A stretch of 33,181 bases of DNA from Candidatus Falkowbacteria bacterium RIFCSPLOWO2_12_FULL_45_13 (GTDB taxonomy: Bacteria > Patescibacteriota > Patescibacteriia > Patescibacteriales > GWC2-42-12), in contig MFFY01000036.1 of NCBI GenBank assembly GCA_001778055.1, forward strand, positions 1-33,181, written 5' to 3'. The notes under the pieces were generated by a model. It was not told the origin of the DNA. It did no database searches and worked only from the letters and a program-made list of their open reading frames with translations. The position numbers and the translations under genes were made by a program. This document shows positions 3,006-31,804 of the stretch, piece by piece; within the stretch, counting starts at the first letter, position 1, and every line of letters starts with the position of its first letter.

Positions 3006-4457
3006 TTATTTTTTCTTTTTCTCGGTTTTTTCTCTTCCGCCAGAGGCGCCGTGCCCGCCGGCCGGCCGGCCGGCGAGGTAGGCAGGCAGGGATCCGCTTG
3101 GAGCGGATTTCACTTTTACTGCCGCTCCTTTTTCCTTCTTGGCCTTTTTAACTTTGGGCTTTGCCATGGCGGCGCCGCTGGAGGGTGTCTCTGCCAGAGC
3201 TTCAATTTTTTTGATCGCGCCGGCTTTTTCTTCGGCGCCGGCGGCGCTCGCCTTGGGCTCTCTAGATAAAGCGGCTTCAAAGGCCGGCTTTTTCTCCGCC
3301 TCCGCCGCTGTCTTGTCTTTAGCCGAAATGGCCAAGCCCAAACGATGATCTTTGGGCTCAATGGAGACCACGGTGAATTCCTTTTTTTCGCCGACTTTGT
3401 AGGCTTCATTGATTTTCTGCCCGGCCGCGAGTTCCAGTTGACTGATATGCGACAGGCCGTGGATATCTTTGTCCAATTCAACAAACAGGCCGAAAGGATT
3501 AATTTTTAAAATAGTGCCGGTAACGCTTTGCCCGACCTGATATTTTTTCTCCACCTCGCGCCAGGGGTCAGCCAGAAGTTTTTTAACCGATAAAAATATC
3601 TTTGAGCCCTCAATGGAAATAATTTCGGCCCTGACCTTGTCTCCGACCTTGAATAAATCAGAGGGATCGTCAATTCTTTGCCAAGCCAATTCGCTGATAT
3701 GGATTAAACCTTCCAGATTTTCACCAAAGTTCAAGAAGACGCCGAAGTCAGTCAAAGCGGTGATGGCACCGCTAACCACGCTGCCGACCCGATATTTGGA
3801 AATAATGTCTTTTTGCTTTTCCTGCCAGGCCTCTTTTTCGCTGACAATCAATTTTTCGTCCGGTTCGTCCAGGGTCATGACTTTAACTTCAAAATCAACG
3901 CCGATGAAAGATTTCAGTTTATCCAAAATTTTGCCTTTATCGCCGCCGTTGACCCTGGGGTAATTTTCCGGCGCCAATTGCGAAACCGGCAAAAATCCCT
4001 GAATTTGGGCGAAACTAACCAGCAATCCGCCCTTGTTGGCGTCGTTAATCCTGACCTTCAATATTTTCCTGTTATCATAAGCGTCAATCAGGGTGCTCCA
4101 GGCCTTCTGCTGGCCCGCGCTCCTGAATGACAATTCCAGTTCGCCATTCTCGTTTTCTTCTTCAATAATCGTGGCCTCAACTTCATCCCCCGACTTCAGG
4201 TTGGCGTATTCCTCGGCTTCAAAATAAAGTTCGCGGCCACGGACCACGCCGGTGGTTATGCCGCCCACGTCCAACTTAACCTCGGCTTTAGAAGCGGCCA
4301 AGACCGTACCCTTGACGATATCGCCGGCCACCGGAATTTTTATGTTTTCCTTATCCAATAATTTTTGAAATTCCTCCCGGCTGGCCGGGTCATGGTTCAA
4401 CTCGTCCGGGTTGAACGGCTTCTGGATACTATTATTCTTTTTTGTTTCTTCGGCCAT
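3006..4457 (-). CDS. rpsA: 30S ribosomal protein S1 (four S1 domains plus a low-complexity C-terminal tail)
   Basis: Repeated S1 motifs (NKGGLLV..IQGFLPVSQL, DFGVFLNF..LEGLIHISEL, PFGLFVEL..IHGLSHISQL); Lys/Ala-rich tail contains repeat-derived sequence. Confidence 0.93.
   Translation of the reverse strand: MAEETKKNNSIQKPFNPDELNHDPASREEFQKLLDKENIKIPVAGDIVKGTVLAASKAEVKLDVGGITTGVVRGRELYFEAEEYANLKSGDEVEATIIEEENENGELELSFRSAGQQKAWSTLIDAYDNRKILKVRINDANKGGLLVSFAQIQGFLPVSQLAPENYPRVNGGDKGKILDKLKSFIGVDFEVKVMTLDEPDEKLIVSEKEAWQEKQKDIISKYRVGSVVSGAITALTDFGVFLNFGENLEGLIHISELAWQRIDDPSDLFKVGDKVRAEIISIEGSKIFLSVKKLLADPWREVEKKYQVGQSVTGTILKINPFGLFVELDKDIHGLSHISQLELAAGQKINEAYKVGEKKEFTVVSIEPKDHRLGLAISAKDKTAAEAEKKPAFEAALSREPKASAAGAEEKAGAIKKIEALAETPSSGAAMAKPKVKKAKKEKGAAVKVKSAPSGSLPAYLAGRPAGGHGASGGREKTEKKKK
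3036..3107. repeat. Nested palindromic elements in the rpsA 3' end
   Basis: TCCGCCAGAGGCG (3036-3048) + 42-bp insert ending GGCAGGCAGG (3049-3090) + GATCCGCTTGGAGCGGA (3091-3107). The joined outer halves resemble the 30-bp element at 27404-27433. Confidence 0.75.
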
Positions 4458-4659
4458 ATTTTGTTCCGATTTTTATCCGAAAATAAAAAAACTTTTCTAA
4501 CCTCCCGCCGCCGTCCGGCGGTCAAAGGAAGCCCCTCGGTCACCTTATACCGAAGGTTTAATTATAGGTGCTTATTTAATTGTTTTACTATTATACACTA
4601 TTTGATAATAATTACAAGGCCTTGTTTTGCCCTTGTTTTGCCCACCAACCTTTTTATTT

Positions 4660-6111
4660 TCACCACAACTTTTTTCCAGTAGGTACCGGCCTATCTCCTG
4701 GCGTGACATATTGACCTCCCTCGTTCATTGTCTTGCTCTGCCTTAAAAAAGATACTGTGCCGTCTGGTAAGAGGTAATGCCCGGGAGAACAGGCCATAAT
4801 GTCTTGCTCTTTTTTATTTTCATCATGCTCCATATTCTTGGCGCGCCCGGAAAAATAAGATATTTTGGGCTGTCGCTTTATAAACCATTTGTCATAATCT
4901 GGGCTAGCTTGCTTTATTGCCTCCTTAAACATATTGGCGAAATCGTCGTTACCATGTAGAAGTATTTCGGGTCGAAGTGGTTGTAGCGTTCGGCAGACAT
5001 TCACCATGTCTGACATATATTGTTTGGGATTTTTTCTCGCCCGTACTTCGTAGGGACTGACTGAAATTCTTACCCTATCCAAAAACTCTCCTCCCTTTTT
5101 TACTATCTTTTCTGCCGCGCCTTGCGCGACTGAATCCGGCTGATACCAGCCGGCAGTAGTAATATGTATTCTCCGCTTCTTTGACGCCAGGACTTCTACT
5201 ACGTCGCCATAATCTGCCGGAGAACCGTCGCTATGTAAAAATTTATTATCGCGATAGTCAAAGGGGTCGCTATCGTTATAATTCATAATGCTAGAAAAAA
5301 ACTGTGAGGTAGTAATAGGAAAACCAAGTCCTTTTACATAATCAGTTACAAATAACTGGTTGCCGTCGCGATAGTCGCCCATAGGTCCATTGACAAACGC
5401 AAGAAGTTCCTCGGGAGTTTTTTTAGCACCCCTAAAATATTCAATCAACACCGGGTAGCTGGGCACCATTTTAATAAGCAATTCATTGATCTCACGAACC
5501 GTTTGGGGATTAAAGCCGCGGCCCCGTAAACCAAGAGCCTTAGCCAGCGCCGTCCGCGCGTCCCACTCACCGCCCGTAGAAGAATCGGCTTTAAAGCGGT
5601 CATCATGCATAAACGATGTGTCAATTTTAAGTTGAGCACCAAGGTCATGGCAAAACTTTATCCAATCTTTCTCAATAAGAGCCTCTCTTCTTCGCATCCG
5701 TTCGCCAATTTTAAGCACGGCTTGGAACGGCATGGTTTGCACCTCTCGTGAAGTGTCCGCGGCGCAGAAAGTGCACTGATGGCGGCAGCCTTTGGTTGTT
5801 TGAACCACGGCCAAGTGCGCCCCATATAATTCTTTTTCTTCCGCCGGTTCCAGTTCCGCCAATCCGGAAAAATATTCTCCATGAGGATTTTCCACGGTCG
5901 GCAGTTCCCGCGGGTCCATCCTTAAACCAGCGGCAATTTTTCCCGCCACTTCTTTTCCCTTCGCACTCAAAGGAAAATGAGGCGTAAGCAACGGCCGCGC
6001 CAGTTTGACGCATAGGTCTTCCGCCGCTTTTTTGTCCGCATTTTCTGACACCAAAACATCGGCGCCGACTTTCGGTTTTAGCGGTTCACGATGTTTAAAT
6101 TCAAATCCCAT
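4660..6111 (-). CDS. Radical SAM-like protein of unknown function
   Basis: 483-aa ORF with TTKGCRHQCTFC (CxxxCxxC); the rest is not recognisable. Confidence 0.7.
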   Translation of the reverse strand: MGFEFKHREPLKPKVGADVLVSENADKKAAEDLCVKLARPLLTPHFPLSAKGKEVAGKIAAGLRMDPRELPTVENPHGEYFSGLAELEPAEEKELYGAHLAVVQTTKGCRHQCTFCAADTSREVQTMPFQAVLKIGERMRRREALIEKDWIKFCHDLGAQLKIDTSFMHDDRFKADSSTGGEWDARTALAKALGLRGRGFNPQTVREINELLIKMVPSYPVLIEYFRGAKKTPEELLAFVNGPMGDYRDGNQLFVTDYVKGLGFPITTSQFFSSIMNYNDSDPFDYRDNKFLHSDGSPADYGDVVEVLASKKRRIHITTAGWYQPDSVAQGAAEKIVKKGGEFLDRVRISVSPYEVRARKNPKQYMSDMVNVCRTLQPLRPEILLHGNDDFANMFKEAIKQASPDYDKWFIKRQPKISYFSGRAKNMEHDENKKEQDIMACSPGHYLLPDGTVSFLRQSKTMNEGGQYVTPGDRPVPTGKKLW

Positions 6112-6148
6112 ATTGATGTAAAATTATTTATGATATCTAATATTTTAC

Positions 6149-6613
6149 CTATTCCGTAAATAAAGTTGGTTTGATTTGTTTCAAATACCCCATGCAGTCG
6201 GCCCATTCGCTGGCCGGGCCGGTCAGGTCAAAAACCAGAACCAGGCCGTTATAGGGAACGATAACCCTGCCATCGCTTTCCGTTCCCGCATCAGCCTGCT
6301 TCGCGATTATGTTATAATGCTTGGCCGGGCAAGTTTTCTTGCCGTCCTCTTCGCGGTAAAATTCAAGATTCCTGGCTCCCGCGGTTTTAAAGCCTCGGGG
6401 CAGGTTGAAGCCGTAGCCCATAACCACATTATCCACGATTAGCCGGCCATCAGCGGCTTCGGTCACGGCATAAGGCGAAGCCTGATGCACGATTTGAGCG
6501 CTGATCCAGTCCGCGCTTTCCTCTCGCACTAAAGCATACCAAATAATAAAAATACTAACTAAAGTTGAGAGAAATAAAACGGTAATTTTTATAGAATAAT
6601 CGGTCTGATACAT
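6149..6613 (-). CDS. Hypothetical protein with an N-terminal membrane anchor
   Basis: ORF with hydrophobic ITVLFLSTLVSIFIIWYALV. Start uncertain (TTG 6619 or ATG 6613). Confidence 0.7.
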   Translation of the reverse strand: MYQTDYSIKITVLFLSTLVSIFIIWYALVREESADWISAQIVHQASPYAVTEAADGRLIVDNVVMGYGFNLPRGFKTAGARNLEFYREEDGKKTCPAKHYNIIAKQADAGTESDGRVIVPYNGLVLVFDLTGPASEWADCMGYLKQIKPTLFTE

Positions 6614-6628
6614 AAGCAAAGCATGTTT

Positions 6629-6688
6629 GTCTTCGCCAAGAGTCCCCCGCTAAAATTTAGCGGGGGACGGCGAAGCCATGGCCGACAG
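6629..6688. repeat. Nested palindromic elements: 27-bp hairpin inside a CTTCGCC..GGCGAAG element
   Basis: GTCCCCCGCTAAA-A-TTTAGCGGGGGAC (6642-6668) flanked by CTTCGCC and GGCGAAGCCATGGCCGAC. Confidence 0.7.
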
Positions 6689-6781
6689 TGCTAAAGTCAT
6701 CCATATTATAGCAATATTTATCCAAATAAAAAAGGCGCTGCACGCGCCCCTGATATTTGCCCTGTTAAAAAAATATAATAA

Positions 6782-6832
6782 TAGAACTTACGCGGTTGAA
6801 AAACCTCCGTTCAGTCAACCGCGTAAGTTCTA
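6782..6832. repeat. 51-bp hairpin repeat with 18-bp arms; second copy at 11848-11898
   Basis: TAGAACTTACGCGGTTGA / TCAACCGCGTAAGTTCTA; its reverse complement aligns ungapped to 11848-11898, including the loop sequence TGAACGGAGGT. Confidence 0.85.
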
Positions 6833-6850
6833 AATAGGGTAAAATTAATT

Positions 6851-7804
6851 TTATTGCGGCGTGGCGCATCCGGCCGCGGCGTTGCTATTACTGACGCCGG
6901 CGCCGAATCCGGCCGCCGGAGAGACGCTGGATAACTGCTTGGAGCATTCGGCCGGTTTATTATTGAAAGCCGCGCAAATGCCGGCTAAATAACTTGCCGC
7001 GTCCCTGCCGGCATCGGACTGAACCCCGTTGATCACTAAAGTCGGGCTGCCCTGCACGCCATAACTCTGGCTTAAATCAGAATCGGTTTTATAATAATCT
7101 TTTGACTTGGCGGCAAGGCAGCTCGCCAATTTGATTTTATCAATCCCGGCCTGGGTCTGACAGATGCTGGTATCGCCTTGCTCGGTGAAACATTTTAAAT
7201 AATTATAATATTTGGCGGTTTGCTGCTCGCGCAGGCAAACTTGAGCATAGGTTTCCTGATTTTCCTTGTCGCCATGCATGAAATAATGGACGAACCTGAC
7301 CTTGGCGTCAATCTTATCGCCTAAAGCTTCAAAGGCGGGAATGATGCCTTTTTCCGCCTGCAAACCGTAAGGGCAATGAGTCATAACGAATAATTCAACC
7401 TTTGGTTTATCGGTTTTTGGCACATTAGCGGTCGGCGCAACGGCTTGAGAATTATCCGCCGAAGCCGCTGCCGTCGCTTGTTGGGCGGCGTTCTCCTGGG
7501 CGAAAGTTGCCATATCAAGGCCGCTTTGAAAAAATTTCCCGCCGTCCTTGGTCATATATGAAGTATAGTCCTTGCCGCTGACGTTTAAATTAATATTGTA
7601 GACATCGCCCTCCAAAATCGCGTTTTTAACCGTGGCCTTGATGTCTGACGGCAATAAATTTTCGTTAATAAATTTTTCCGCCGCCGCCTTGGCTTCTTCC
7701 GGGCTAAGAATTTTCCTGGCCTGCTGATCAATCTTGGCCAGCGGAATGGCGCAGCCGCTTACCAATACAGCCAAAAATAGGCTTAAAATAATTATTTTTT
7801 TCAT
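6851..7804 (-). CDS. Lipoprotein with a thioredoxin/DsbA-like domain
   Basis: Lipobox LVSGC; VELFVMTHCPYG active-site-like motif; YGVQGSPTLVING cis-Pro loop; many Cys residues. Confidence 0.8.
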   Translation of the reverse strand: MKKIIILSLFLAVLVSGCAIPLAKIDQQARKILSPEEAKAAAEKFINENLLPSDIKATVKNAILEGDVYNINLNVSGKDYTSYMTKDGGKFFQSGLDMATFAQENAAQQATAAASADNSQAVAPTANVPKTDKPKVELFVMTHCPYGLQAEKGIIPAFEALGDKIDAKVRFVHYFMHGDKENQETYAQVCLREQQTAKYYNYLKCFTEQGDTSICQTQAGIDKIKLASCLAAKSKDYYKTDSDLSQSYGVQGSPTLVINGVQSDAGRDAASYLAGICAAFNNKPAECSKQLSSVSPAAGFGAGVSNSNAAAGCATPQ

Positions 7805-7831
7805 GTTTTTAAAAATTAATCTTATTTAGAT

Positions 7832-7860
7832 AGAATAACAAATTATCTTTAACAAGTCAA
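7832..7860 (-). promoter_or_regulatory. Putative sigma70 promoter for the lipoprotein gene
   Basis: Minus strand TTGACT-17 nt-TATTCT. Confidence 0.5.
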
Positions 7861-7893
7861 AAAAAATCTGCCTAATCAGTAACAGCCGCTTTA

Positions 7894-8694
7894 TCACTCA
7901 GCGCCAAATCTTGAAAGTTGGCCGTTTTTTAAATTACGGCGATAAATCATAATTAAAAAAATATACATCAACGCGAGATAAATTATGGCTAGCCCCGCGC
8001 CGGTTAAAAAATTAGCTAAAAGATGAGGCGTTGAAACAGCGCCGGTTAAACCACGAAAACTTTCAAAGACATACGAGGCTGGAATAATTTTAGAGACAGC
8101 TTGAAGCGCGGCCGGCAAGGTGCTAATCGGATAAAAAACCCCGGCAAAGATCGACAAAACGAACGGTATGGGCCAGCCCAGCCATTCGGCCGACGGGCCG
8201 AAGCGTAAAATTATGGCCGTCATAAAAATCCCCATGGCCACGGCAAAAATAAAGAGCACCAGCATAAAAGGCAAAATTATTAAACCGATTTTAAAAACAT
8301 TATAACCGAAAACCAGGCCGGCTACTGCGGCCATAACCAGAAAGCTAGCCAAGCCCATGGCCAGGCTGGTGGCTACCAGGCCGGCCACGTATTCTTTAAT
8401 CGTTAAGGGCGAAGCAAAAAAATTAATAAAACTCTGCGCCCAGACGTCTTCTAAAAAAGCCGTCATCACGCCCTGTTGAATGCGAGTTAAAAAATTCCAT
8501 AAAATAATCGCTCCCAAAATCACGCTGGTAAAATTAAAAGTGGCGTTGCCAAAAGCGCTTAAATATTTACTAATAAATCCCCACAGGATAATATCAACAA
8601 AAATCCATAAGAAAGGAGCGGTCAATCGCATGGGGTTGCCTTTGTATAAAAATACTTGGCGGATAAAAATGGCGTAAATTCTGGTCAGGCTCAT
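7894..8694 (-). CDS. ABC-2 type transporter permease
   Basis: About six TM helices, GVFYPISTLP motif, adjacent to an ABC ATPase. Start placed at ATG 8694. Confidence 0.9.
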   Translation of the reverse strand: MSLTRIYAIFIRQVFLYKGNPMRLTAPFLWIFVDIILWGFISKYLSAFGNATFNFTSVILGAIILWNFLTRIQQGVMTAFLEDVWAQSFINFFASPLTIKEYVAGLVATSLAMGLASFLVMAAVAGLVFGYNVFKIGLIILPFMLVLFIFAVAMGIFMTAIILRFGPSAEWLGWPIPFVLSIFAGVFYPISTLPAALQAVSKIIPASYVFESFRGLTGAVSTPHLLANFLTGAGLAIIYLALMYIFLIMIYRRNLKNGQLSRFGAE

Positions 8695-8730
8695 ATGATT
8701 CAAAAGTCAAAGGGGGAGAACATTATGACC

Positions 8731-11847: not shown

Positions 11848-11898
11848 CAGGGCTTACGCGGTTGATTGAACGGAGGTATGTCAAATGCGTAAATCCTA
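11848..11898. repeat. Second, degenerate copy of the 51-bp hairpin repeat
   Basis: CAGGGCTTACGCGGTTGATTGAACGGAGGTATGTCAAATGCGTAAATCCTA, matching the reverse complement of 6782-6832. Confidence 0.8.
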
Positions 11899-12738: not shown

Positions 12739-13968
12739 ATGAAACAATCTCAACTTTTCACTAAAACCGAGCGCTTCGCCCCTAAAGACGAAGAAACCGT
12801 CAACGCCAAGCTTTTAAGCCGGGCCGGTTATGTGGAAAAACTTATGGCTGGCGTCTATAGCTACCTACCCTTGGGTTTCAAGGCGCTCAAAAAAATTGAA
12901 CAGGTGGTGCGCCAGGAAATGAACGCCATTGGCGGACAAGAAATTTTGATGCCCATAATGCACCCTAAAGAAAACTGGGTAGCAACCGGCGGCTGGAGCG
13001 GCATTGACGTGCTGTTTAAGATTAAAAGCCGGACGGAAAAAGAATACGCTTTAGGCCAGAGCGAAGAAGAGGTGGCAACGCCGCTGGTCATGCGCTGGGC
13101 GAGGAGCGACAAAGATCTGCCTTTGGCGGTTTACCAGATCCACTGGAAATTCCGAGACGAATTAAGGGCAAAATCCGGACTATTGCGCGGACGGGAATTT
13201 CTCATGAAAGATATGTACAGCTTCCATGCCGATCAAGCGGATTTTGACAAATTTTATGAAATCGTCAAACAGGCTTATTTAAAAATATTTAAACGGTTTG
13301 GCTTAACGGCTAAAGTCACCGAAGCTTCGGGCGGAAGCTTTAGCGATAAAATATCTTATGAATTCATGGTGCTGACCGACGCGGGCGAGGACGATATCCT
13401 CTATTGCGATAAATGCGTTTTTTGCGTTAACCGTGAAATCGCCAAACAAAAAGAAGGCGATCCCTGCCCCAAATGTAAGTCCAGTAAATTAAGCGGCGCC
13501 AAAGCCTCGGAAGTGGGCAATGTTTTCGATTTGGGCAAAAAATACGGCCAAGATTTCAACCTGGGCTTTACCAATAAGGACGGAGAGAAGCAGTACCCGG
13601 TCATGGGCTGCTACGGCATCGGCATCTCGCGCCTCTTAGGCGTGATCGTGGAAAAATATCATGACGATCAAGGCATTGTCTGGCCCGAAGCCGTGGCGCC
13701 ATTTAAGGTTCATCTCCTGTCTTTAAATAAAAACGATCAGGCGGAAAAAATATACCGCGACTTAGAAAAAAACCAAATTGAAGTTTTATACGACGACCGC
13801 GACTTAAGCCCAGGCGAAAAATTCGCGGACGCGGATTTAATCGGCCTGCCCTACCGCCTGGTAGTGAGCGACAAGTCGCTTAAGGCCGGCAGCGTGGAAA
13901 TAAAAAAGAGAAATGAATATAAGGGCAAGATTATTAAAGATAAAGAGATTGTGAAAAAATTGAAATAA
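12739..13968 (+). CDS. proS: Proline--tRNA ligase, short form lacking the editing insertion
   Basis: Motif 2 KFRDELRAKSGLLRGREFLMKDMYSF, motif 3 MGCYGIGISRL, anticodon domain DDRDLSPGEKFADADLIGLP. Confidence 0.95.
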   Translation: MKQSQLFTKTERFAPKDEETVNAKLLSRAGYVEKLMAGVYSYLPLGFKALKKIEQVVRQEMNAIGGQEILMPIMHPKENWVATGGWSGIDVLFKIKSRTEKEYALGQSEEEVATPLVMRWARSDKDLPLAVYQIHWKFRDELRAKSGLLRGREFLMKDMYSFHADQADFDKFYEIVKQAYLKIFKRFGLTAKVTEASGGSFSDKISYEFMVLTDAGEDDILYCDKCVFCVNREIAKQKEGDPCPKCKSSKLSGAKASEVGNVFDLGKKYGQDFNLGFTNKDGEKQYPVMGCYGIGISRLLGVIVEKYHDDQGIVWPEAVAPFKVHLLSLNKNDQAEKIYRDLEKNQIEVLYDDRDLSPGEKFADADLIGLPYRLVVSDKSLKAGSVEIKKRNEYKGKIIKDKEIVKKLK

Positions 13969-14034
13969 ACATTCACATAAAAAAATGCAGAGACGCGATT
14001 AATCGCGTCTCTGCATTTTTTTATGTGAATGTTT
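13967..14034. repeat. 68-bp perfect palindrome with a REP-like core, between convergent genes
   Basis: 34-bp arms centred at 14000/14001; core GCAGAGACGCGATTAATCGCGTCTCTGC is shared with 19456-19483; A7/T7 tracts suggest a bidirectional terminator. Confidence 0.9.
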
Positions 14035-15549
14035 GAACACCTGCGCCGTAAACACCAAAATCTCCGTGTCTTTATCTTTGTAAGCATCGGACGGCAGTCC
14101 GGCCTTCTGCCGGCAGAGCTGACTTAAAAATTCTTCCAGGCTCCAGCCGGTTTCGACCGCCACCTGGGGCAAAAAAACGCCACTATGATTTCCTTTTCTA
14201 ATAATTACTCCTTGTTCACCCAATTTTATTTTCCGCCAATCGTCAATCCGCCAAGGGGCGGATAAAACGCTTACCTCATATTCCAATTCGTCCAATTCGT
14301 CTTGACTAACCGGACTAAAACGATAATCTTCGCTGCAAGCCGCCACGGCCATATCGCGCACCACCTGCCAGAGCGGCTGGTCCAATGGCACGATCTGGCC
14401 AATACAGCCACGAAGCTGGCCGTTTTCATCCAAAGTTACAAACGCGCCTTGTTTTTCGTTTAATTTTTCATCGGCCACGCTGAATTCAGGCACCCGGCCG
14501 GTTTTTACATAAATCTCCACTGTGTCTTTAGCGATTTTCAGTAGTGTTTGCTGTTGCTTAATATTTAATCCACCGGTTGCCACGGCTTCAGCCGAGGTTG
14601 CATTTGCAATTTCATTTTCAACTTTGACTTTTACGCTTTCCACTTGAGCGAAAGCGACCGCTCCATACCCCACCACTTGATTTTTATCGCCAATCGGCGC
14701 GTCGCCGCTATTCATGTATTTTAATATTTTAATTTCATCCCAGCCGGCCAAATTCGCCAGCTCCATCACAGTCTTGACCGCGTCAATGCCGCATAGCGCT
14801 GTTTGCTCATTGGCGTAACTGGCCTGTTCCACCGTTGCCGCATATTTTTCTAACTCGGCTACGTCTCCGCTCTTAATTTTTTCCAAAGTGCCTTGATCAA
14901 TTTTATTGGCATCCGCGTACTTAGGATAATGCGACATGTCGGTTGAAATCACCACTAAATCGTTCTCGCCCAAGTTAGCGGCCAGCGCCCGCGCCAGTTT
15001 CTTGTAACCGCCATCGTCTTTATTGCCAAATTCAACGGGTACAATCTTAAAGCCCGGGCTTAAAACCGTTTGCAAAAACGGCAATTCCACTTCCAAGTTA
15101 TGGTCAGCTTGATGCGGCGCGCTGTCAAACTTTATGGCGCCGCCGCCGGCAACGACCAGCTTATCCGCCAATTTCTTATCAACCGCCGCCTGGCCCAAAG
15201 GCGTTTGCCAGGCATCGCTATCATCAATGGCCGCGCCGTCAAAATAGGCTTGATGTGAATTGCCGATCATCACCACCGTATTCACCTTTCTGCCCTGAAG
15301 CGCTTTAAAAGCGTAAGCGGCCACCGCTCCGCTATAATCGTAACCGGCGTGGGGCACCATAATGGCTCGAATTTGGCCACTCCCGCTTTCTCTCTCCGCA
15401 GAAGTTCCCCTCCTTACGAAGGAGGGGCCAGGGGAGGTTATTGAGGGGGTTGTTTGTTTTAAAAATCTTTCAATCTGGTCCGAGACAGCGCCCGGTTCGC
15501 TGGGATAAAACTGCCCGACCACGGCCGGCTGCCTGATTTTTTTTGGCAT
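13999..15549 (-). CDS. amrB: AmmeMemoRadiSam system protein B (MEMO1-like) fused to protein A (AMMECR1-like)
   Basis: IRQPAVVGQFYP, PHAGYDYSG, STDMSHY (MEMO); GAFVTL..GQLRGCIG, DYRFSPV, GVFLPQVA (AMMECR1). Confidence 0.92.
   Translation of the reverse strand: MPKKIRQPAVVGQFYPSEPGAVSDQIERFLKQTTPSITSPGPSFVRRGTSAERESGSGQIRAIMVPHAGYDYSGAVAAYAFKALQGRKVNTVVMIGNSHQAYFDGAAIDDSDAWQTPLGQAAVDKKLADKLVVAGGGAIKFDSAPHQADHNLEVELPFLQTVLSPGFKIVPVEFGNKDDGGYKKLARALAANLGENDLVVISTDMSHYPKYADANKIDQGTLEKIKSGDVAELEKYAATVEQASYANEQTALCGIDAVKTVMELANLAGWDEIKILKYMNSGDAPIGDKNQVVGYGAVAFAQVESVKVKVENEIANATSAEAVATGGLNIKQQQTLLKIAKDTVEIYVKTGRVPEFSVADEKLNEKQGAFVTLDENGQLRGCIGQIVPLDQPLWQVVRDMAVAACSEDYRFSPVSQDELDELEYEVSVLSAPWRIDDWRKIKLGEQGVIIRKGNHSGVFLPQVAVETGWSLEEFLSQLCRQKAGLPSDAYKDKDTEILVFTAQVFKHSHKKMQRRD
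15407..15439. repeat. Hairpin-plus-G-tail element (family A), in frame in amrB
   Basis: CCCCTCCTTACGAAGGAGGGGCCAGGGGAGGTT; encodes TSPGPSFVRRG. Confidence 0.8.
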
Positions 15550-16469: not shown

Positions 16470-16985
16470 TTACAATAACTCCAAAATTTTCAGCTCTAGG
16501 GGCGGCTGGCCAGCCGCCCCTACACTGTCCCAGACCGCGAAAGTCGCTTTAAAAAAAACTCCGCCCAAAGTTCCCGGATTAGCCATCATCACCCCATTTT
16601 TTTCCTCTAGCCACGGCCTATGCGTATGACCGTAAAAAATTATGTCGCATTTTTTCAAAGGCGCATGGCAATGCGCCGCTACTTTTTTTATAAACCAGGG
16701 TTCGTGGTATAAACCAACGGTTTTGCCGTCTATCTCAAACACGCCGAACCGGCCCAGATATTTTATATTTTTATACTGTCCAACTTCTGCCTCATCGTAA
16801 ATTTCTAAATTGCCGCGCACCAGATATATGGTTTTAAAATTTTTTGCCAGATAGGCCAAAGTATCGCTATTCACCACGTCGCCCGCGCAGACGGCATTTT
16901 CTATGCCCTGGTTTCTGCCCCAGTTTAAACATTTTTCCAGATTGACCAGGTTGTCATGGATGTCGGAGATAATTAAAAATTTCAT
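16470..16985 (-). CDS. Metallophosphoesterase, YfcE/MJ0936 family
   Basis: ISDIHDN, CAGD, VRGN, YGHTH and NPG motifs. Confidence 0.9.
   Translation of the reverse strand: MKFLIISDIHDNLVNLEKCLNWGRNQGIENAVCAGDVVNSDTLAYLAKNFKTIYLVRGNLEIYDEAEVGQYKNIKYLGRFGVFEIDGKTVGLYHEPWFIKKVAAHCHAPLKKCDIIFYGHTHRPWLEEKNGVMMANPGTLGGVFFKATFAVWDSVGAAGQPPLELKILELL
16496..16523 (-). repeat. GTAG-type REP hairpin in frame in the phosphoesterase C-terminus
   Basis: Minus strand GTAGGGGCGGCTGGCCAGCCGCCCCTAG (26-bp perfect palindrome 16497-16522); encodes VGAAGQPPL. Confidence 0.8.
16656..16682 (-). repeat. Degenerate GTAG-type REP in frame in the phosphoesterase
   Basis: Minus strand GTAGCGGCGCATTGCCATGCGCCTTTG; encodes VAAHCHAPL. 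Confidence 0.65.
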
Positions 16986-18365: not shown

Positions 18366-18444
18366 GCTTTAATTATAGCTTAAAATAACCTTGTATACCA
18401 AATATAGATTGAGATGGTTACAAAACTATTTTTGCTGCAATTTG

Positions 18445-18502
18445 CCTGCCTGTCGGCGGGCAGGTAGCGCGGCTCGCGAAGCCTGCCTGCCGGCAGGCAG
18501 GC
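18445..18502. repeat. Pair of CCTGCCTGCCGGCAGGCAGG palindromes
   Basis: Degenerate copy at 18445-18464; perfect 22-bp palindrome at 18481-18502. Confidence 0.8.
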
Positions 18503-19443: not shown

Positions 19444-19495
19444 AAATAAAAAACGGCAGAGACGCGATTAATCGCGTCTCTGCCGTTTTTTATTT
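19444..19495. repeat. 52-bp perfect palindrome with a REP-like core, in terminator position
   Basis: AAATAAAAAACGGCAGAGACGCGATT|AATCGCGTCTCTGCCGTTTTTTATTT, just past the stop of the translin-like gene. Confidence 0.9.
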
Positions 19496-23163: not shown

Positions 23164-23190
23164 TAGGGTCGAACAGCCGTTCACCCCTAC
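23164..23190 (-). repeat. GTAG-type REP downstream of the RAYT gene
   Basis: Minus strand GTAGGGGTGAACGGCTGTTCGACCCTA, a variant of the copy at 23465-23492. Confidence 0.8.
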
Positions 23191-23225: not shown

Positions 23226-23774
23226 TTACGATTCTGTTATATTTTTATTTACGGCTAAATTTTCAATATCATTCGGCCAGTTGCCGGGATTGTTCCAAAT
23301 ATAATTTCGTATTCTATTTAAAGAATTTTCGTTTCTGATTATATGTTCGTAATAATTGCGCTGCCATAAATCCGTCCCGAGCATATTTCGAAATAAATTT
23401 ACCTGTTTTGTCGCGGCTGATTTATAACCGGCCATCAACGACGAAATTGATTTTGGCCGCATTCGTAGGGGCGAACGGCCGTTTGCCCCTACCGTTAGCG
23501 CATTGCCGCATTCGTTAATAAACACAATAAAATGAAAATAATTCGGCATGATGATAAATTCATCCAAATAAATTTCTTTTCTGATTACGCCCGTTCTCAA
23601 CCATTCCCTTTTAACGATAATGCCCAATTCATTTAACATCATTTCCTCTTCAACAATCTCCCCGAATAAACATTCCAGATTTTTTACGCAAATTGTCACG
23701 AAATACATGCCAGCCTGACTGTAATCATAGCCGGGCAAACGAATCGACCGCCGATTATATTTCCCTCCTTGCAT
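23226..23774 (-). mobile_element. REP-associated tyrosine transposase (RAYT/TnpA-REP, Y1 HUH superfamily); HUH motif altered
   Basis: RRSIRLPGYDYSQAGMYFVTIC, MPNYFH (expected MPNHxH), WQRNYYEHIIR and YIWNNP; GTAG REPs inside and downstream of the gene. Confidence 0.88.
23465..23492. repeat. GTAG-type REP in frame within the RAYT coding sequence
   Basis: GTAGGGGCGAACGGCCGTTTGCCCCTAC; encodes VGANGRSPL on the minus strand. Confidence 0.85.
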
Positions 23775-25428: not shown

Positions 25429-25454
25429 GCGATACAAGAAACGATCATTTTTAT

Positions 25455-26543
25455 TTATAAATTCTTACTTCTAACTTCTAACTTAACTTTTCTACCTCTC
25501 GCTTTAGTCGCGTAATAGCTAGCCAATAATGCCGCCAGGCTGATAATTTCTTCTCCGTTTTTTCCCTCGTCCATTTTTAATTCACTCATTTTCAACTCTT
25601 GGGGTACTTTTATTTCGCGCGTTTCATTCGTAATTTTTAATTCGTAATTTTTAATTCGTATTAAACTCGTCGGTCCGGCCGCCTCTGCCATATTGATTAA
25701 TATATCACCGGTCTGGACAAATCTCAATAAATTCTCATTGTCTTGTTGGTCCCGGCCCACTACCACCAGCGCCCTAGATCCGCCTTGGCGTCCCTTAGCG
25801 TCTTTTGACGTTTTCAGCGTCAGCCAATAAATCCTGCCGTGCTTTAAGAGCTCTATATCGTTACCAGAACATTCCGGCCAATATTCCATTAGTTTCATTA
25901 ATTTTTCGCTAAACACCGGATCGGTCAAAATACAGCCGCCGCCCGGGCTGGAATATTCCTTTATACCATACTTTTTTACCATTGCCAACTGGCGCTTTCT
26001 TCCCCGGCCGTTTAAATCCAAGAGCCGGCTCCTGTCCACCCTGCCGGTTTTTTCCAAATCCGATTCGTCCAATAATCTGGCCGAGAGCGGCCTGATCAGC
26101 CTGCCTTTAAGCCCGGCGATTTTCTCCACCAGCCGAAGCGCCTCCGGATTTTGCGACATGGGCCGCTCGCCCAAAACTTCGCCCGTGGCCACGAAGTCAT
26201 ATTCTCCGTTAACGTTCTCCCCCTTAGTAAAGGGGAGATTAAGAGGGGGGTTTTCTATTATCTCTCTAGCTTTTCCGAGCATCAGCGCGTGGCAATCAAC
26301 GCAGGGGTTCATGTTTTTGCCATAGCCGTATTGAGGATTTTTCACCATGGCCAGATGCTCTTCTGAAAAATCCATTTCAATTAATTTTACGCCTAATCGC
26401 TCGGCGACCTTTTTTGCCTTGGCCGTGCCAAAAAAATAACTCTTAAAAGACAGACCGGTAACTTCAACGCCCTGCTCCATTAAAAGCCTGGCCGCCAGCA
26501 TGGAATCCAGTCCGCCTGATAGTAAAATAAGAGCTTTAGTCAT
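25455..26543 (-). CDS. PP-loop tRNA-modifying enzyme (ThiI/MnmA-like thiouridylase family)
   Basis: LLSGGLDS PP-loop, YGYGKNMNPCVDC, TGEVLGERPMSQ, GGGCILTD. Confidence 0.85.
   Translation of the reverse strand: MTKALILLSGGLDSMLAARLLMEQGVEVTGLSFKSYFFGTAKAKKVAERLGVKLIEMDFSEEHLAMVKNPQYGYGKNMNPCVDCHALMLGKAREIIENPPLNLPFTKGENVNGEYDFVATGEVLGERPMSQNPEALRLVEKIAGLKGRLIRPLSARLLDESDLEKTGRVDRSRLLDLNGRGRKRQLAMVKKYGIKEYSSPGGGCILTDPVFSEKLMKLMEYWPECSGNDIELLKHGRIYWLTLKTSKDAKGRQGGSRALVVVGRDQQDNENLLRFVQTGDILINMAEAAGPTSLIRIKNYELKITNETREIKVPQELKMSELKMDEGKNGEEIISLAALLASYYATKARGRKVKLEVRSKNL
26215..26252. repeat. Family A element in frame in the tRNA-modifying enzyme
   Basis: TTCTCCCCCTTAGTAAAGGGGAGATTAAGAGGGGGGTT; encodes NPPLNLPFTKGEN. 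Confidence 0.8.
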
Positions 26544-29500
26544 ATTTTTATTCCCAACCTAACTTTTTCCCCGTTCACCTTCACCGCCTCGCCCCCAGCT
26601 TCGTTTTCCGTTATTTTCTCGCTCAAAGTATCCTTTTTCAATTCCCCGGCCGTTTCTTTAAAAACCTTTTTCACCATTTCCGAATCGCTGTGCCAGCTCA
26701 AAATTATCTTATCTTTTATGGTTAGACCGGCGTTTTTGCGCATATTATTAACCAAGCGCACGATTTCCCGCTTGAGGCCATCCAGTCTCAAGTCTTCGGT
26801 TATAGTCGTATCCAGCTCCGCCTTTATTTCGCCCTTGCCATTTTTGACCGTAACCTTTTTCACATTCAATTCATCTTTCAACAGTCCTTCATAGTCTTTC
26901 CCTAATTCATAATTTATAATTCTTAATTCACTAAGCATTTGCCTGACCTTAATGCCCGCTTCATCCCGCTTGGCCAATCCCAGTTCCACGACTTTCCTGA
27001 CTTTAGCCATCTCTGTCAAAACTCGCTCACCTCCTTTATCTGTGATCTGTGTTTTTGGCCAAGCCTCCAGATGCACGCTCCTATTTTTATCCTTAAAATC
27101 GAGCTCCGTAACTTTTTGCCAAATGGTTTCAGCCATGAAGGGCATGAACGGAGCCATAATCTTGGCCAGTTCGATCAAAACATGCTTAGTCACGGTCAGG
27201 GCATTATTTTTATCCGCTACGTCTTCGGACTTATACCGTTCGCGGCTACGCCGCAGATACCAGGTGGAGATATCGTTGATAAAATCGGTGATGGGCCGGG
27301 CGGCGCGCGGCAAATCATACTTATCCATACTTTCCGTGACTTCGCCTATCAATTGATTCAAGCGCGCCAAAATCCATTGGTCAAGGATGTTAACCCCCTC
27401 TTTTCCGCCAGAGGCGGATCCGCCTCTGGCGGAAATCTCCCTCTTAGTAAGGGTGAGAACCTCCCCCTCCTTAATAAGAAGGGGGTTGGGAGAGATGGCG
27501 TAAAGCTCGTAAAACTTAAAAACATTCCACAATAAAATGATATTTTTTCTTAAAGTGTTTTGGATATCAATTTCGGACAAACTCATGTCATCGCCGACCA
27601 TTATCGGGCTGGACATAAAATACATCCTGATGGCATCGCTGGTATATTTCTCCAGGGTGGCTTTGGGGTCGGGATAGTTGCCGTAGGATTTGCTCATCTT
27701 TCGTCCGTCGGTTCCGGCTAAAACGCCGGTAACGATAACATTCTTAAAAGCAACATTATTAAATAAAGAATTGGCCAAAACATGGAGATAATAAAACCAA
27801 CCCCGCAACTGTCCCGTATATTCAATGATGAAATCGGCCGGAAAAAGACGCTGCCATTCATCTTGACGGTTAAAGGGATAATGGAATTGGGCGAAGGGCA
27901 TGGCTCCGGATTCAAACCAGCAATCTAAAACTTCACGCACCCGTTTCATGGTGCCGCCACACTGAGTACATGTAAATTCAACCTCATCTATTGCCGGTTT
28001 ATGCAGATCAATAATTTTTTTTCCACTTAACCCTTCTAACTCTTTTATTGAACCAACAACCTTAATGTTATCACAAGGTTGATTATTTTTATATCCACTT
28101 TTGACTTTTGACTTTTGACTTTTGACTTCGGCCAAGCCGCTGCATTTCCAGACCGGAATCGGCGACCCCCAATAGCGGGAGCGCGACAGGCTCCAGTCCG
28201 GCGCTGATTTTAAATTATAGCGGAACCGGCCCGACTTAAAATGCTCGGGAATCCAATTTACCTTCTCCCCGTTCTTTAGGAGTTTTTCCCGTATCGCGGA
28301 AATCTTCAGATACCAGGCTTTCTGCGCCCGATATATGAGCGGCGTACCGCAACGATAACAAAACGGATAACTATGCGCATAAGCAAACGAGCTGAATAAT
28401 TTATCACCCAAATCGGCCAAAACTTTCGCGCCCGCTTTGGAAAAATAATGGCCAAACCAGGCCCCGGCGTTTTTGGTATAGATCCCGTTTTCATCCATTA
28501 AATCAACCACGGGTAAAGATTGTTTTTTCCCCAGTTCAAAATCATCCTCGCCGAAATTCGGGGCGATATGCACCACGCCGGTGCCTTCTTCAGTGCTGAC
28601 AAATTCCCCGCCGTATATCTTAAAAACGTTTTTATCTTCCGCAATCTGTTTATTGTTCAAATCAAAAATCGGTTCATAATTTAAATTTATCAAGTCCTTG
28701 CCGGCAAATTTTTTTATGATTTCATGCTTTTTATCTTTAAAAATATCCTTTACTTTCTCTTCGGCTATAATATAATACTCACCCGCAGATTCCACTTCCG
28801 CGTATTTTATCTTTTCTCCAACGGCTAAAGCCAAATTTCCCGGCAGGGTCCAAGGAGTGGTGGTCCAGGCCAGCAAATAAACGTTCTTGCCCCCCTTCAA
28901 AAGGGGGGTTGAGGGGGTTTTGCCTTTCAATTTGAACTTTACCACTACCGTGTTATCCGTGACGTCGCGGTAGGAGCCGGCATCCATGGTAATCTCAAAT
29001 TTGGACAAGGGCGTAGCGCAACGGGGGCAATGAAGAGAAGAGCGGTAACCTTCGTAAATCAAACCTTGATGATAAAGTTCTTTAAAAGCCCAGATGACGC
29101 TTTCCATATAGTTCAAATCCATGGTCCGATAAGCATGCTTCATATCCACCCACCGGCCGATCCGATTGATATACCATTGCCATTGCTCGCTACCCTGATC
29201 GACATAAATCCGACAGGCGTCAATAAATTTGTCCACGCCCAATTTTTCAATATCCTTTTTATTCCTTAACCCCAATTGTTTTTCCACCTGATTTTCCGCC
29301 GGCAAGCCGTGGCAGTCCCAGCCCCACACCCTTTCCACCCGGTAGCCTTTCATGGCCCAAAAACGCGGCACTACGTCTTTGGCGATACTAGGAAGCAATG
29401 TGGCGTAGTGCGGCAAGCCGGTTATGAACGGCGGCCCGTCGTAAAAAACATAATCTCTCTTTTTGCCCCCTTGATAAGATCCCCTCTCCTTACGAAGGAG

Positions 29501-29641
29501 AGGGTTAGGGCGAGGTTCTCCGGGGGGATTATTTACGCTTTTTTCAAAAATTTTATTCTTTTCCCAAAAATCCAAAACCTGCTCTTCCATTTTAGGAAAA
29601 GGATTGGTTGACTGCTTCGAATCTGATTTTTTATCAATCAT
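26540..29641 (-). CDS. ileS: Isoleucine--tRNA ligase (type 2) with several repeat-derived insertions
   Basis: FYDGPPF..GLPHYAT, GWDCHGLPAE, WTTTPWTLPGN, EEGTGVVHIAP, DWSLSRSRYWG, KMSKS; lacks the C-terminal Zn finger of type 1. Confidence 0.97.
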   Translation of the reverse strand: MIDKKSDSKQSTNPFPKMEEQVLDFWEKNKIFEKSVNNPPGEPRPNPLLRKERGSYQGGKKRDYVFYDGPPFITGLPHYATLLPSIAKDVVPRFWAMKGYRVERVWGWDCHGLPAENQVEKQLGLRNKKDIEKLGVDKFIDACRIYVDQGSEQWQWYINRIGRWVDMKHAYRTMDLNYMESVIWAFKELYHQGLIYEGYRSSLHCPRCATPLSKFEITMDAGSYRDVTDNTVVVKFKLKGKTPSTPLLKGGKNVYLLAWTTTPWTLPGNLALAVGEKIKYAEVESAGEYYIIAEEKVKDIFKDKKHEIIKKFAGKDLINLNYEPIFDLNNKQIAEDKNVFKIYGGEFVSTEEGTGVVHIAPNFGEDDFELGKKQSLPVVDLMDENGIYTKNAGAWFGHYFSKAGAKVLADLGDKLFSSFAYAHSYPFCYRCGTPLIYRAQKAWYLKISAIREKLLKNGEKVNWIPEHFKSGRFRYNLKSAPDWSLSRSRYWGSPIPVWKCSGLAEVKSQKSKVKSGYKNNQPCDNIKVVGSIKELEGLSGKKIIDLHKPAIDEVEFTCTQCGGTMKRVREVLDCWFESGAMPFAQFHYPFNRQDEWQRLFPADFIIEYTGQLRGWFYYLHVLANSLFNNVAFKNVIVTGVLAGTDGRKMSKSYGNYPDPKATLEKYTSDAIRMYFMSSPIMVGDDMSLSEIDIQNTLRKNIILLWNVFKFYELYAISPNPLLIKEGEVLTLTKREISARGGSASGGKEGVNILDQWILARLNQLIGEVTESMDKYDLPRAARPITDFINDISTWYLRRSRERYKSEDVADKNNALTVTKHVLIELAKIMAPFMPFMAETIWQKVTELDFKDKNRSVHLEAWPKTQITDKGGERVLTEMAKVRKVVELGLAKRDEAGIKVRQMLSELRIINYELGKDYEGLLKDELNVKKVTVKNGKGEIKAELDTTITEDLRLDGLKREIVRLVNNMRKNAGLTIKDKIILSWHSDSEMVKKVFKETAGELKKDTLSEKITENEAGGEAVKVNGEKVRLGIKI
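27392..27496. repeat. Cluster of three palindromic elements in frame in ileS
   Basis: Family A element (27392-27460) interrupted by the 34-bp perfect palindrome TTTCCGCCAGAGGCGGA|TCCGCCTCTGGCGGAAA (27402-27435), followed by an opposite-orientation family A copy (27463-27496). Confidence 0.85.
28097..28128. repeat. (ACTTTTG) x4.5 heptamer array in frame in ileS
   Basis: Exact repeats; encodes VKSQKSKVKS between the Cys residues of a Zn-knuckle region. Confidence 0.9.
28890..28920. repeat. Family A element in frame in ileS
   Basis: CCCCCCTTCAAAAGGGGGGTTGAGGGGGTTT; encodes KTPSTPLLKGG. Confidence 0.8.
29466..29530. repeat. Nested family A elements near the ileS N-terminus
   Basis: Inner CCCTCTCCTTACGAAGGAGAGGGTTAGGGCGAGG within outer CCCCCTTGATAA...GGGGGGATT. 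Confidence 0.8.
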
Positions 29642-29687
29642 AAATTTTCCGCTAACTTAGCGTTCAATTTTCTCTGTATTATTAATT

Positions 29688-29716
29688 ATTTTAGCCCAAA
29701 TTAAACTAAATGTCAA
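29688..29716 (-). promoter_or_regulatory. Sigma70 promoter for the ileS operon
   Basis: Minus strand TTGACA-17 nt-TAAAAT. Confidence 0.7.
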
Positions 29717-29913
29717 AAATTTTTTAAAATAAATCCTGCCACGGGCGCCCCTTGATAAAGAAGCCGGGCCGGACTATCATTAATATTAACCGCGTTAATT
29801 TATAACCTACAAAAGAGCGGGGCTAAAATCGCGCGCTTACAATTATTCAAACCCACCCACGGCGGCTGCCCTTAAAACTAAGCCAGGATCGGCAAAATGA
29901 TTTTTATTATTCT

Positions 29914-31770
29914 ATGCCCAAATTCATACTAAAAAGTAAGTTCAAGCCCGCCGGCGATCAGCCCGAGGCTATCGCCAAATTGGTGGACGGCTTAAAAAAA
30001 GGCTATCGCGACCAAACGCTCTTGGGCGTAACCGGCTCGGGCAAAACTTTCACCATGGCCGGCATTATTGAAAAAATTCAAAAGCCGACACTGGTGATTT
30101 CCCATAATAAAACCCTGGCCGCCCAGCTCTACGGCGAGTTCAAGCAATTTTTTCCGGGCAACGCCGTGCATTACTTTGTTTCCTATTACGACTACTACCA
30201 GCCCGAAGCCTATATCCCGCAAACCGACACCTATATTGAAAAAGAAACCGCCATCAACGAAGAAATAGACCGCCTGCGCCATGCCGCCACCCAATCCTTG
30301 CTTTACCGCCGGGATGTTTTAATCGTGGCCAGCGTTTCCTGCATCTACGGGCTGGGCGAAAAAGCGGATTACCAGGCCATGGGTAAAACCTTCCGGGTCG
30401 GCCAAAAAATAAAAAGAAATCAGCTGCTAAGAGAACTGGTCGCCATTCAATACGCGCGCGACGAAACCGAATTCAAGCGCGGCAATTTCCGCGTCCGAGG
30501 CGAAAATATTGATATTCATCTGGCCACCGGCGAAGCCGTGGCGCGGATTGTCCTGTTCGGCGATCTGGTGGATAAAATCAAAATCTACGCCATCCGGCCG
30601 GGGCTGGACGCTCCCTCCTGGTCGCTCGATTCCCGCCGCCTGGAGGCCGAGACGCTCTCGGAAATCATCATTCTGCCGGCCAAACACTTTATCACGCCGC
30701 CAGAAAAAATGGTGCGGGCGCTAAAAAATATCCGCCAAGAATTAAAATCCAGGCTTAAAGAACTAAAAAAACTCGGCCAAGAGGTTGAGGCTTACCGGCT
30801 GGAGAAAAAAACCAATTACGATCTGGAAATGATGGCGGAGGTGGGCTACTGCAATGGCATAGAAAATTACTCCCGTCATTTAACCGGCCGCGCCGCCGGC
30901 GAGCCACCGGAAACTTTGATTGATTTTTTTCCTTCGCCGCGCCGTAGCTTTAGCGAAGGCGAGCCCAAAGATTATCTCTTGCTGATAGACGAGTCGCACG
31001 TCACTCTGCCGCAAATCCGCGGCATGCACGCCGGCGACCAGTCGCGCAAGCAAACCCTGATTGACTTCGGTTTCCGCCTGCCCAGCGCCCGCGACAACCG
31101 GCCATTAAACTTCGAAGAGTTCAACGGCAAAGTAAAACAAGTAATCTACACGAGCGCCACGCCGGCCGATTATGAAATCAAAAATTCAAAACAAGTGGTG
31201 GAGCAGCTGGTCAGACCGACCGGCCTCCTAGACCCGGAAATAGAAGTCAGGCCCAACCCCGGGCAAATTCAGGACTTAATCAAAGAAATAAAGACGAGAA
31301 TCGACCATGGCCAGCGCACCCTGGTGACGACCCTGACCAAGCGCATGGCCGAGGAACTGACCAGCTACCTTGCCGAACAGAAAATCAAAGTGCAATATTT
31401 GCATAGCGAGGTGGAAACTTTAGAGCGGGTTGATATTTTGCGCGACTTGCGCTTAGGCAAGTATGACGTCTTAGTGGGCATCAATCTCCTGCGCGAAGGC
31501 CTGGACTTGCCTGAAGTTTCGCTGGTCGCCATTTTAGACGCGGACCTGTCCGGCTTTTTGCGCACCGGAACCTCTTTAATCCAAACCATGGGCCGCGCCG
31601 CCCGCCATTTAGAAGGCAAGGTCATTATGTACGCGGATAAAATCACTCCGGCCATGCGCTATACCATTAACGAAACCAAGCGCCGCCGAACAGTTCAGGC
31701 ATCATACAACAAAAAGCACGGCATCACGCCGCGACAAATTACGGCAAAATTTCACGAGAGTATGATATAA
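29914..31770 (+). CDS. uvrB: Excinuclease ABC subunit B; C-terminal UVR domain apparently absent
   Basis: [51 protein letters not shown]. Confidence 0.97.
30931..30963 (+). repeat. Family B element in frame in uvrB
   Basis: CCTTCGCCGCGCCGTAGCTTTAGCGAAGGCGAG adds about 11 aa ([11 protein letters not shown]) in the normally compact DYFP-x-DFLL-x-IDESH segment. Confidence 0.7.
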
Positions 31771-31771
31771 A

Positions 31772-31804
31772 CCCTTCCCTAACAAGGGAGGGTGGGGATG
31801 GGTT
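31772..31804. repeat. Family A element immediately after the uvrB stop
   Basis: CCCTTCCCTAACAAGGGAGGGTGGGGATGGGTT. Confidence 0.7.

Follow-up and report, generated by a model that had tools for sequence, protein, structure and literature searches.

Families of small palindromic repeats between genes and in frame within conserved protein genes of a Candidatus Falkowbacteria genome

Results

The stretch of DNA analysed here (the window) comprises 33,181 bases at the start of contig C36 in the genome of Candidatus Falkowbacteria bacterium RIFCSPLOWO2_12_FULL_45_13 (G000), an assembly of 938,303 bases in 61 contigs with 44% G+C and about 91% completeness. The genomes of its relatives measure 0.6-1.4 Mb. 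The genes of the window lie mainly on the minus strand and encode FtsH, RpsA, a Memo-AMMECR1 fusion, a metallophosphoesterase, a protein resembling the transposases associated with repetitive extragenic palindromes (REPs), here called RAYT-like, an MnmA-like tRNA enzyme and isoleucyl-tRNA synthetase (IleRS); UvrB is encoded on the plus strand. By UvrB, the closest named relative is a Candidatus Falkowbacteria metagenome-assembled genome with 71% identity, and the sequencing runs that contain the sequence are groundwater and soil metagenomes. Small palindromic elements recur throughout the window, both between the genes and inside them, and these elements are the subject of this study. An Rfam scan of the window found no family at its gathering score.

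A preliminary description of the window, made from its letters, had distinguished at least four hairpin families. Three of them, which we call A, B and C, are over-represented in the genome. Family A, about 35 nt long, consists of a poly-C arm, a short loop and a poly-G arm followed by a TTRGGGGG tail. Family B is built from units of the type TCCGCC-nnn-GGCGGA (TCCGCCnnnGGCGGA), and in its full form two units meet at GGATCC. Family C has the form GCCTGCC..GGCAGGC and is about 21 nt long. With an nhmmer model of family A (three iterations, E<=0.05), 64 loci were found in the whole genome and 0 in the Markov-shuffled control. A regular expression for B, with one error allowed, gave 240 raw matches that merged into 149 loci, compared with 11-17 raw matches in shuffles, and family C has 55 loci versus 1-2 raw matches in shuffles. 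GC-rich perfect hairpins with a stem of at least 7 numbered 382 in G000 and 105-107 in first-order Markov shuffles. The overall densities of the families are 0.06-0.16 per kb. The remaining candidates of the preliminary description did not show such abundance: CTTCGC..GCGAAG, with 6 matches versus 2-4 in shuffles, was rejected as a repeat family, and the GTAG REPs have 3 copies in the entire 938 kb assembly, all of them in the window and two of the three in genes.

Placement relative to genes was judged with a purpose-built codon-usage gene caller, which recovered the window genes correctly and called 801 genes, 85% of the genome being coding. Inside called genes lie 47 of the 64 A loci, 86 of the 149 B loci and 29 of the 55 C loci (53-73% of copies), while element density in coding DNA is 2- to 5-fold below that in intergenic DNA. 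At least one element or heptamer array (described below) occurs in 98 of the 801 genes, and in 91 of the 533 genes of at least 200 aa. The earlier view that unrelated families of micro-palindromes lie at high density in intergenic DNA as well as in frame within conserved proteins was upheld. Ten multiply decorated genes were scanned, and they encode a UvrD/AddA-like helicase-nuclease, a P-type ATPase, SecA, DNA polymerase I, a surface protein, LigA, a PEP synthase/PPDK, DnaK, RecG and AspRS. Genic B units occur in every reading frame (0/1/2 = 31/16/39) and give, depending on the frame, peptides of the type SAxGGSASGG, PPxADPPLAE or RLRR. Genic A copies occur in two orientations (28 and 19). 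With one and the same DNA element translated in three different frames, the conserved object is the DNA and not the peptide.

Within the window, eight sites had been assigned to family A. Six of them belong to one family by nhmmer (15407, 18191, 26215, 27463, 28890 and 31772; E 3e-6 to 3e-3); the site at 29466 consists of two nested copies below the threshold, and that at 27392 was recognised by eye only. The TCCGCC..GGCGGA palindromes proved to be a perfect B at 27404 and a B interrupted by a C-like element at 3036, and the CCTGCC repeats at 3049 and 18445 are family C. The features are listed in Table 1.

Comparison with orthologues showed the elements to be insertions. In the alignment of IleRS with orthologues from 28-29 relatives, the stretches at aa 44-62, 508-527, 724-731 and 738-749 are specific to G000, and a family A peptide of about 8 aa lies in a variable loop at aa 247-256. 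All these inserts are absent from the closest IleRS orthologues (G007, G013 and G008), whose genomes gave no match to the A hairpin or to B. A-type peptides are present at two of the same IleRS sites in G009, a genome with 109 A hairpin matches. The insert sites coincide with gap positions in the solved IleRS 8c8u_A. A metagenome scan with IleRS gave nothing above 65% identity.

At the first of these IleRS sites, contigs in three runs join the flanks by other letters that replace 88 nt of the present sequence (29452 to 29541 with 31 letters in runs X1 and X4; 29450 to 29540 with 32 in X12), and one of these variants contains a different small hairpin. The joints may represent relatives with another filling of the site, which we take as a hint only; contig joints below 95% likeness often derive from other organisms.

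UvrB alone could be compared at the DNA level, because its orthologues in the genus are 83-85% identical. Between the FFP and KDY codons, G000 has 33 additional bases, G001 has 30 of a different hairpin and G014 has 21 that form a C-type element; 14 of 17 full-length relatives have no insert at this site. In a survey of 80 diverse bacterial loci, 62 had the flanking motifs, and the NYSRH..DESH spacing was 34 aa in 60 of these 62 and 35 and 41 in the other two, compared with 45 in G000. The solved UvrB 9gy7_E has an 11-residue gap at the position of the G000 insert, just before the DESH strand. An AlphaFold2 model of UvrB, made from a 16-sequence alignment, had a mean pLDDT (predicted local distance difference test) of 60.7 with long stretches below 50 and was not used. 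The inserts of UvrB and IleRS were instead placed by the gaps of relatives and solved homologues, and the surface loops proposed in the preliminary description are putative.

The MnmA-like enzyme has an A-derived insert of 12-16 residues, and different proline/glycine-rich inserts occupy the same site in 8 of 21 relatives. In Memo-AMMECR1 an A insert lies near residue 38, with one of similar kind only in G002. The RpsA tail contains a B/C composite and is of low complexity in all relatives. The phosphoesterase is longer by a net 4 residues where the GTAG REP lies, and by 5 where a second hairpin lies. The added peptides listed in the preliminary description for IleRS, UvrB, the MnmA-like enzyme, Memo-AMMECR1, the RpsA tail and the phosphoesterase were therefore recovered by alignment; that of the RAYT-like protein is shared with one orthologue. 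At 13999-15549 a single frame joins Memo (AmrB-like) to AMMECR1 (AmrA-like), and the same fusion is found in most relatives searched.

The ends of family B are sharply defined. Full copies are exactly 30 nt long in 28 of 29 cases. The stems are invariant and the loops variable, and paired stem changes occur (TCAGCC/GGCTGA in 4 copies, TCGGCC/GGCCGA in 1). Tandem arrays of heptamers form a separate feature of the genome: G000 has 37 perfect arrays of period 7 with at least 3 units, versus 0-1 for each of the periods 5, 6 and 8-11, and 26 of the 37 are inside called genes. When B was removed in silico, the heptamer phase was continuous at at least 12 of 14 positions in 11 of the 29 copies; the same level was reached at 0.1% of 3000 random sites and at 0 of 1500 intergenic sites. 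With the relaxed cut of at least 11 of 14 positions, the array was continuous across B in 15 of 29. This restoration of the phase upon removal defines the ends of B, shows that its insertion occurs without target duplication and gives a virtual empty site. As judged by eye, TTT stands immediately 5' of B on one strand in 21 of the 29 copies.

The elements also nest in each other. B lies within the linker of A elements in 5 copies; in the window, B lies inside A at 27392-27458; A lies inside A at 29462-29540; and a C-type element lies inside B at 3036-3110, a composite that recurs at 4-5 other loci. The hexamer GGATCC has 97 occurrences in G000 and about 190 in Markov shuffles, and 21 of the 97 are B centres.

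Copy numbers differ widely among related genomes, which are non-independent samples in this comparison. With at most 1 mismatch, B has 21 copies in G000 and 10, 1, 0 and 0 copies in the other four genomes of its genus (G001-G004, in this order), and 36 further relatives have 0-2 each. The exact B 30-mer was found in 12 of 300 other genomes across the phylum, with 1-3 copies each and in many families; the reversed control gave none. Among 41 relatives, a genome has between 0 and 109 A hairpin matches, and 15 have none. This pattern of B and A fits bursts of mobile elements together with some horizontal spread.

The inserts are supported at most sites by contigs independent of the assembly. Logan contigs from the runs of two studies (X1 and X4) span 15407, 16496, 23164, 23465, 26215, 28890, 29466 and 30931, and in X1 also 31772, with 0-7 differences. 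Among the listed Logan contig pieces, no bridge was found over 27392-27480, where the repeat attracts contigs of many organisms. At the B element there (27401), contigs run out into unrelated AT-rich sequence, 57, 48, 30 and 29 of them in the four runs, indicating that B is present in many other contexts in these communities.

The GTAG REPs at 16496, 23164 and 23465 were recovered as such; the hairpin at 16656, which had been counted with them, differs from them and has no other copy. The tetranucleotide tag GTAG/CGTC is absent from A, B and C, the starts of which are C-runs, TCCGCC or GCCTGCC. G000 has three Y1 (HUH) genes, one RAYT-like and two IS200-like TnpA. The RAYT-like gene reached 23.9 bits with Y1_Tnp when the neighbouring stretches were included. 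Its protein contains the YYEHIIRNE motif, and the H-x-H of homologues is replaced by Y-F-H. Within 700 nt 5' of the gene, no hairpin with a stem of at least 7 was found. The link between GTAG REPs and a RAYT covers the three-copy family only, and not A, B and C. RAYT-like homologues of the relatives contain other REP-like repeats in frame (VGAGHCPVP.., VGTGQCPVP.. and RDVAG.. arrays) in the loop between the HUH and Tyr motifs.

Table 1. Palindromic elements of the window and the genes discussed with them
Position	Strand	Feature	Evidence or remark
3036..3110		Family B copy interrupted by a C-like element	C-terminal tail of RpsA
15404..15441	+	Family A in Memo-AMMECR1, TSPGPSFVRRGT	nhmmer
16497..16522		GTAG REP in the phosphoesterase gene	VGAAGQPPLE, net +4 aa
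18186..18218	+	Family A, intergenic	nhmmer
18444..18502		Two family C copies, intergenic	
23164..23189		GTAG REP	37 nt 3' of the RAYT-like gene
23226..23774	-	RAYT-like Y1 transposase gene, 182 aa	Pfam Y1_Tnp 22.7 bits (cut-off 23)
23466..23491		GTAG REP in the RAYT-like gene	VGANGRSPL
26215..26247	+	Family A in the MnmA-like tRNA enzyme, NPPLNLPFTKGEN	nhmmer
26540..29641	-	IleRS gene, 1033 aa, four lineage-specific in-frame inserts	Pfam; 28-29 orthologues aligned; gaps vs 8c8u_A
27392..27458		Inverted degenerate A copy, linker split by B (nested insertion)	By eye, against the copy at 26215; missed by the A model
27404..27433		Family B, perfect 30-nt double hairpin with GGATCC centre, peptide SARGGSASGG	Inside IleRS
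27462..27496	+	Family A in IleRS, peptide SPNPLLIKEGE	nhmmer E 3.2e-4
28097..28128		Tandem heptamer array, ACTTTTG x 4.5	Within a 20-aa IleRS insert
28886..28920	+	Family A in IleRS, peptide TPSTPLLKGG	nhmmer E 3.1e-6; orthologue alignment
29462..29540	+	Two nested A-like copies forming a 19-aa IleRS insert near the N-terminus	Sub-threshold, E 0.31 and 0.6
30931..30965	+	33-nt hairpin insert in UvrB, 11 residues	Just before the DESH-bearing strand; ends ambiguous by 2 nt
31772..31806	+	Family A, intergenic, two bases 3' of the uvrB stop codon	nhmmer

Discussion

The elements described here have been inserted, as comparison with orthologues shows; they lie within each other, and their copy numbers vary widely among related genomes. 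We consider it likely that several non-autonomous families of dispersed palindromic micro-elements have colonised a small genome. An enzyme acting in trans would copy or move them. With only 15% of the genome intergenic, many copies would land in genes, and those that survive would be copies with a length that is a multiple of three and a frame without stops, placed in a loop that the protein tolerates. The observation made in the preliminary description is mostly confirmed, and its interpretation partly.

Several points weigh against colonisation by mobile elements. No mobilising enzyme was found in the analysis of G000 and its relatives. The preliminary description had suggested looking for transposase genes flanked by each family; the hairpins of A, B and C do not flank the two IS200-like TnpA genes of G000, and G001, with 10 B copies, has no Y1_Tnp match at E<=0.001. 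Most inserts lack an empty site at the DNA level, because the nearest relatives are 50-85% identical in protein. Recurrent inserts at one site could be one old insert that has since diverged, and 8 of 21 relatives have an insert at the MnmA-like site. The coding status of the copies depends on our simple gene caller, and about 10% of the B loci found by the regular expression are probable chance matches (in the window, for example, 14246, 15845 and 20097). The presence of the in-frame inserts in the protein products is predicted from DNA alone.

The hairpins might be moved by HUH/Y1 single-strand DNA transposases (RAYT or IS200/IS605) at the replication fork, as REPs and REPINs are. IS200/IS605 elements insert 3' of a short motif, and B has exact 30-nt ends, no target duplication and TTT 5' in 21 of 29 copies. 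G000 has genes for three Y1 proteins, and the RAYT-like one has a GTAG REP 37 nt past the 3' end of its gene and another inside it. However, the GTAG family has only 3 copies, A, B and C are without the GTAG/CGTC tag, and the RAYT-like protein has Y-F-H against the H-x-H of its relatives. The lack of A, B and C hairpins beside the IS200-like genes speaks against this explanation too, as do the 10 B copies of G001 without a Y1 match and the case of G002, which has three Y1 genes and one B copy. Y1 gene presence does not follow B abundance, the Y1 transposases found no support as drivers of A, B and C, and we regard this explanation as unlikely. The RAYT and Y1 genes do not track A, B and C.

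It is very improbable that the inserts represent variable loops of ancestral origin, or arose by local slippage or template switching, and owe their family appearance to GC-rich low-complexity composition. The site at 14576 is indeed an ancestral linker, the RpsA tail is of low complexity, CTTCGC is at chance level and heptamer arrays could expand by slippage. Near-identical sequences of 30-35 nt at dozens of unrelated loci, with zero in shuffles, are not accounted for in this way; nor are the different families that occupy one UvrB site across genomes and the empty sites of family-free genomes. For A, B and C this explanation is already largely refuted. We give equally little credence to the idea that the repeats are kept for a host function (DNA uptake, chromosome organisation or RNA stability) and spread by biased uptake or recombination and not by transposition. 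The invariant stems with variable loops, the compensatory stem variants and the identical B in distant families of the phylum and in dozens of metagenome contexts would agree with it. However, B is absent from 2 of the 4 other genomes of the genus and the A hairpin from 15 of 41 relatives; a core function is unlikely, because repeats with such a function would be kept. In addition, the copies are insertions and not motifs built by substitution, and their density is far below one per gene.

Colonisation by mobile micro-elements thus remains our preferred explanation, and it may be carried further. We regard it as possible, without calling it probable, that bacteria of this candidate-phylum group contain an SDR-like class (SDR, small dispersed repeat) of the smallest mobile DNA known. 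Among its members would be the 30-nt double hairpin, inserted precisely and without target duplication beside T-runs in heptamer arrays and into other micro-elements by an enzyme other than Y1/RAYT, and spread horizontally across the phylum. Where genomes have almost no intergenic space, such elements would constitute a main source of lineage-specific loops in essential proteins.

The SDRs of Nostocaceae, which Elhai et al. are said to have described in 2008, are reportedly hairpins of 21-27 nt that form several families, lie in heptamer arrays, nest and have no known transposase. Like them, B lies in phase within heptamer arrays, and B is found in A, A in A and C in B. Unlike them, the elements of G000 belong to another phylum, B has 30 nt and more than half of the copies are genic. 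Compared by anatomy only, the Nostoc SDRs appear to be the closest parallel. The families of Rickettsia palindromic elements (RPEs) are mostly about 100 nt or more in size; the present elements resemble them as palindromes in frame in conserved proteins and differ, by inspection, in size and lineage. Fungal mitochondrial GC clusters and double-hairpin elements are GC-rich palindromes within a compact, AT-rich genome, and coding regions hold some of them. B too is a double hairpin, whereas those elements are organellar, and the likeness is one of description only. DNA uptake sequences consist of one short motif that occurs about once per kb, is present lineage-wide and is built by substitution. 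The present repeats comprise several families at 0.06-0.16 per kb, B is lacking in G003 and G004, and the copies are inserted. TIGR-Tas systems have tandem arrays with a period of about 36 nt, whereas the repeats here are dispersed single copies.

In the parts of the source consulted, in-frame REPs are described in uvrA, uvrB, DNA polymerases, ligase and tRNA synthetases, where they add 20-30 residues as dimers, and most REPs are described as intergenic (PMC3733652). [quoted passage not shown] Since in-frame REPs have already been published there, the principle of in-frame repeats is not new. Unlike GTAG/CGTC REPs, A, B and C are untagged, no cognate RAYT was found for them and 53-73% of their copies are genic. 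REPs have tens to hundreds of mostly extragenic copies, and the GTAG family falls short of this. As in the REPIN/RAYT systems of PMC3116915, to the extent that the consulted sections present them, a RAYT-like gene is adjoined by its cognate GTAG palindrome; unlike in those systems, there are 3 GTAG copies of which 2 are genic, no inverted doublets were seen and the HUH motif is altered. MITEs differ from B in that B has only 30 nt and its heptamer phase shows no duplicated target. In the reduced genome of Coxiella burnetii, according to the portion of the paper available, small palindromic repeats called QMITEs have an effect on protein-coding sequence (PMC5896051); the present elements differ from MITEs, which are of larger size and bear terminal inverted repeats. 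Among the HIP1-rich cyanobacteria examined in PMC5861425, no SDR-like repeat is recorded outside Nostocaceae in the portion available. A literature search of limited coverage found nothing on in-frame palindromic repeats in the Candidate Phyla Radiation/Patescibacteria, although the supplementary lists of intragenic REPs in PMC3733652 may include related cases. The elements are thus a dense multi-family variant of a known phenomenon, apparently not described before in this lineage.

If mobile, the elements would be among the smallest mobile DNA described. The precise 30-nt B with its virtual empty sites is a defined substrate for tracing the enzyme that acts on it. The elements would explain part of the lineage-specific insertions that hamper alignment and annotation of proteins from reduced genomes, and they constitute a natural experiment on where IleRS, UvrB, SecA, DnaK and Pol I tolerate 7-30 extra residues. 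In annotation, PLLxKEG, SAxGGSASGG and PPxADPPLAE should be recognised as element-derived peptides and not as motifs.

Other hairpins and palindromes

The CTTCGC types at 6629, 14576 and 30931, which the preliminary description had placed together, do not form a family. That at 6629 is a single-copy intergenic hairpin, and 14576 was rejected as an insert, being an ancestral linker common to close relatives. The site at 30931 is the real 33-nt insert of UvrB, which has only weak matches of 15-22 nt elsewhere in G000.

Perfect palindromes lie at gene ends at 13967-14034 (68 nt), 19444-19495 (52 nt) and 2930-2997 (68 nt), each with an A-run before the stem and a T-run after it. Those at 13967-14034 and 19444-19495 are 92% alike over 48 nt. 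From their sequence, the three look like bidirectional terminators.

An inverted-repeat element of 51 nt (6782-6832, 11853-11877) has 42 blastn-short matches, among them matches of 41-52 nt at 87-95% identity on contigs C61, C13, C47 and C39. A palindrome family of 51 nt with the core GAGATGGTTACAAAACTATTT (18408-18432 in the window) is present at 43 loci of G000, and the GTCATTGCGAG family at 44; in each of the two families, 39 loci are intergenic.

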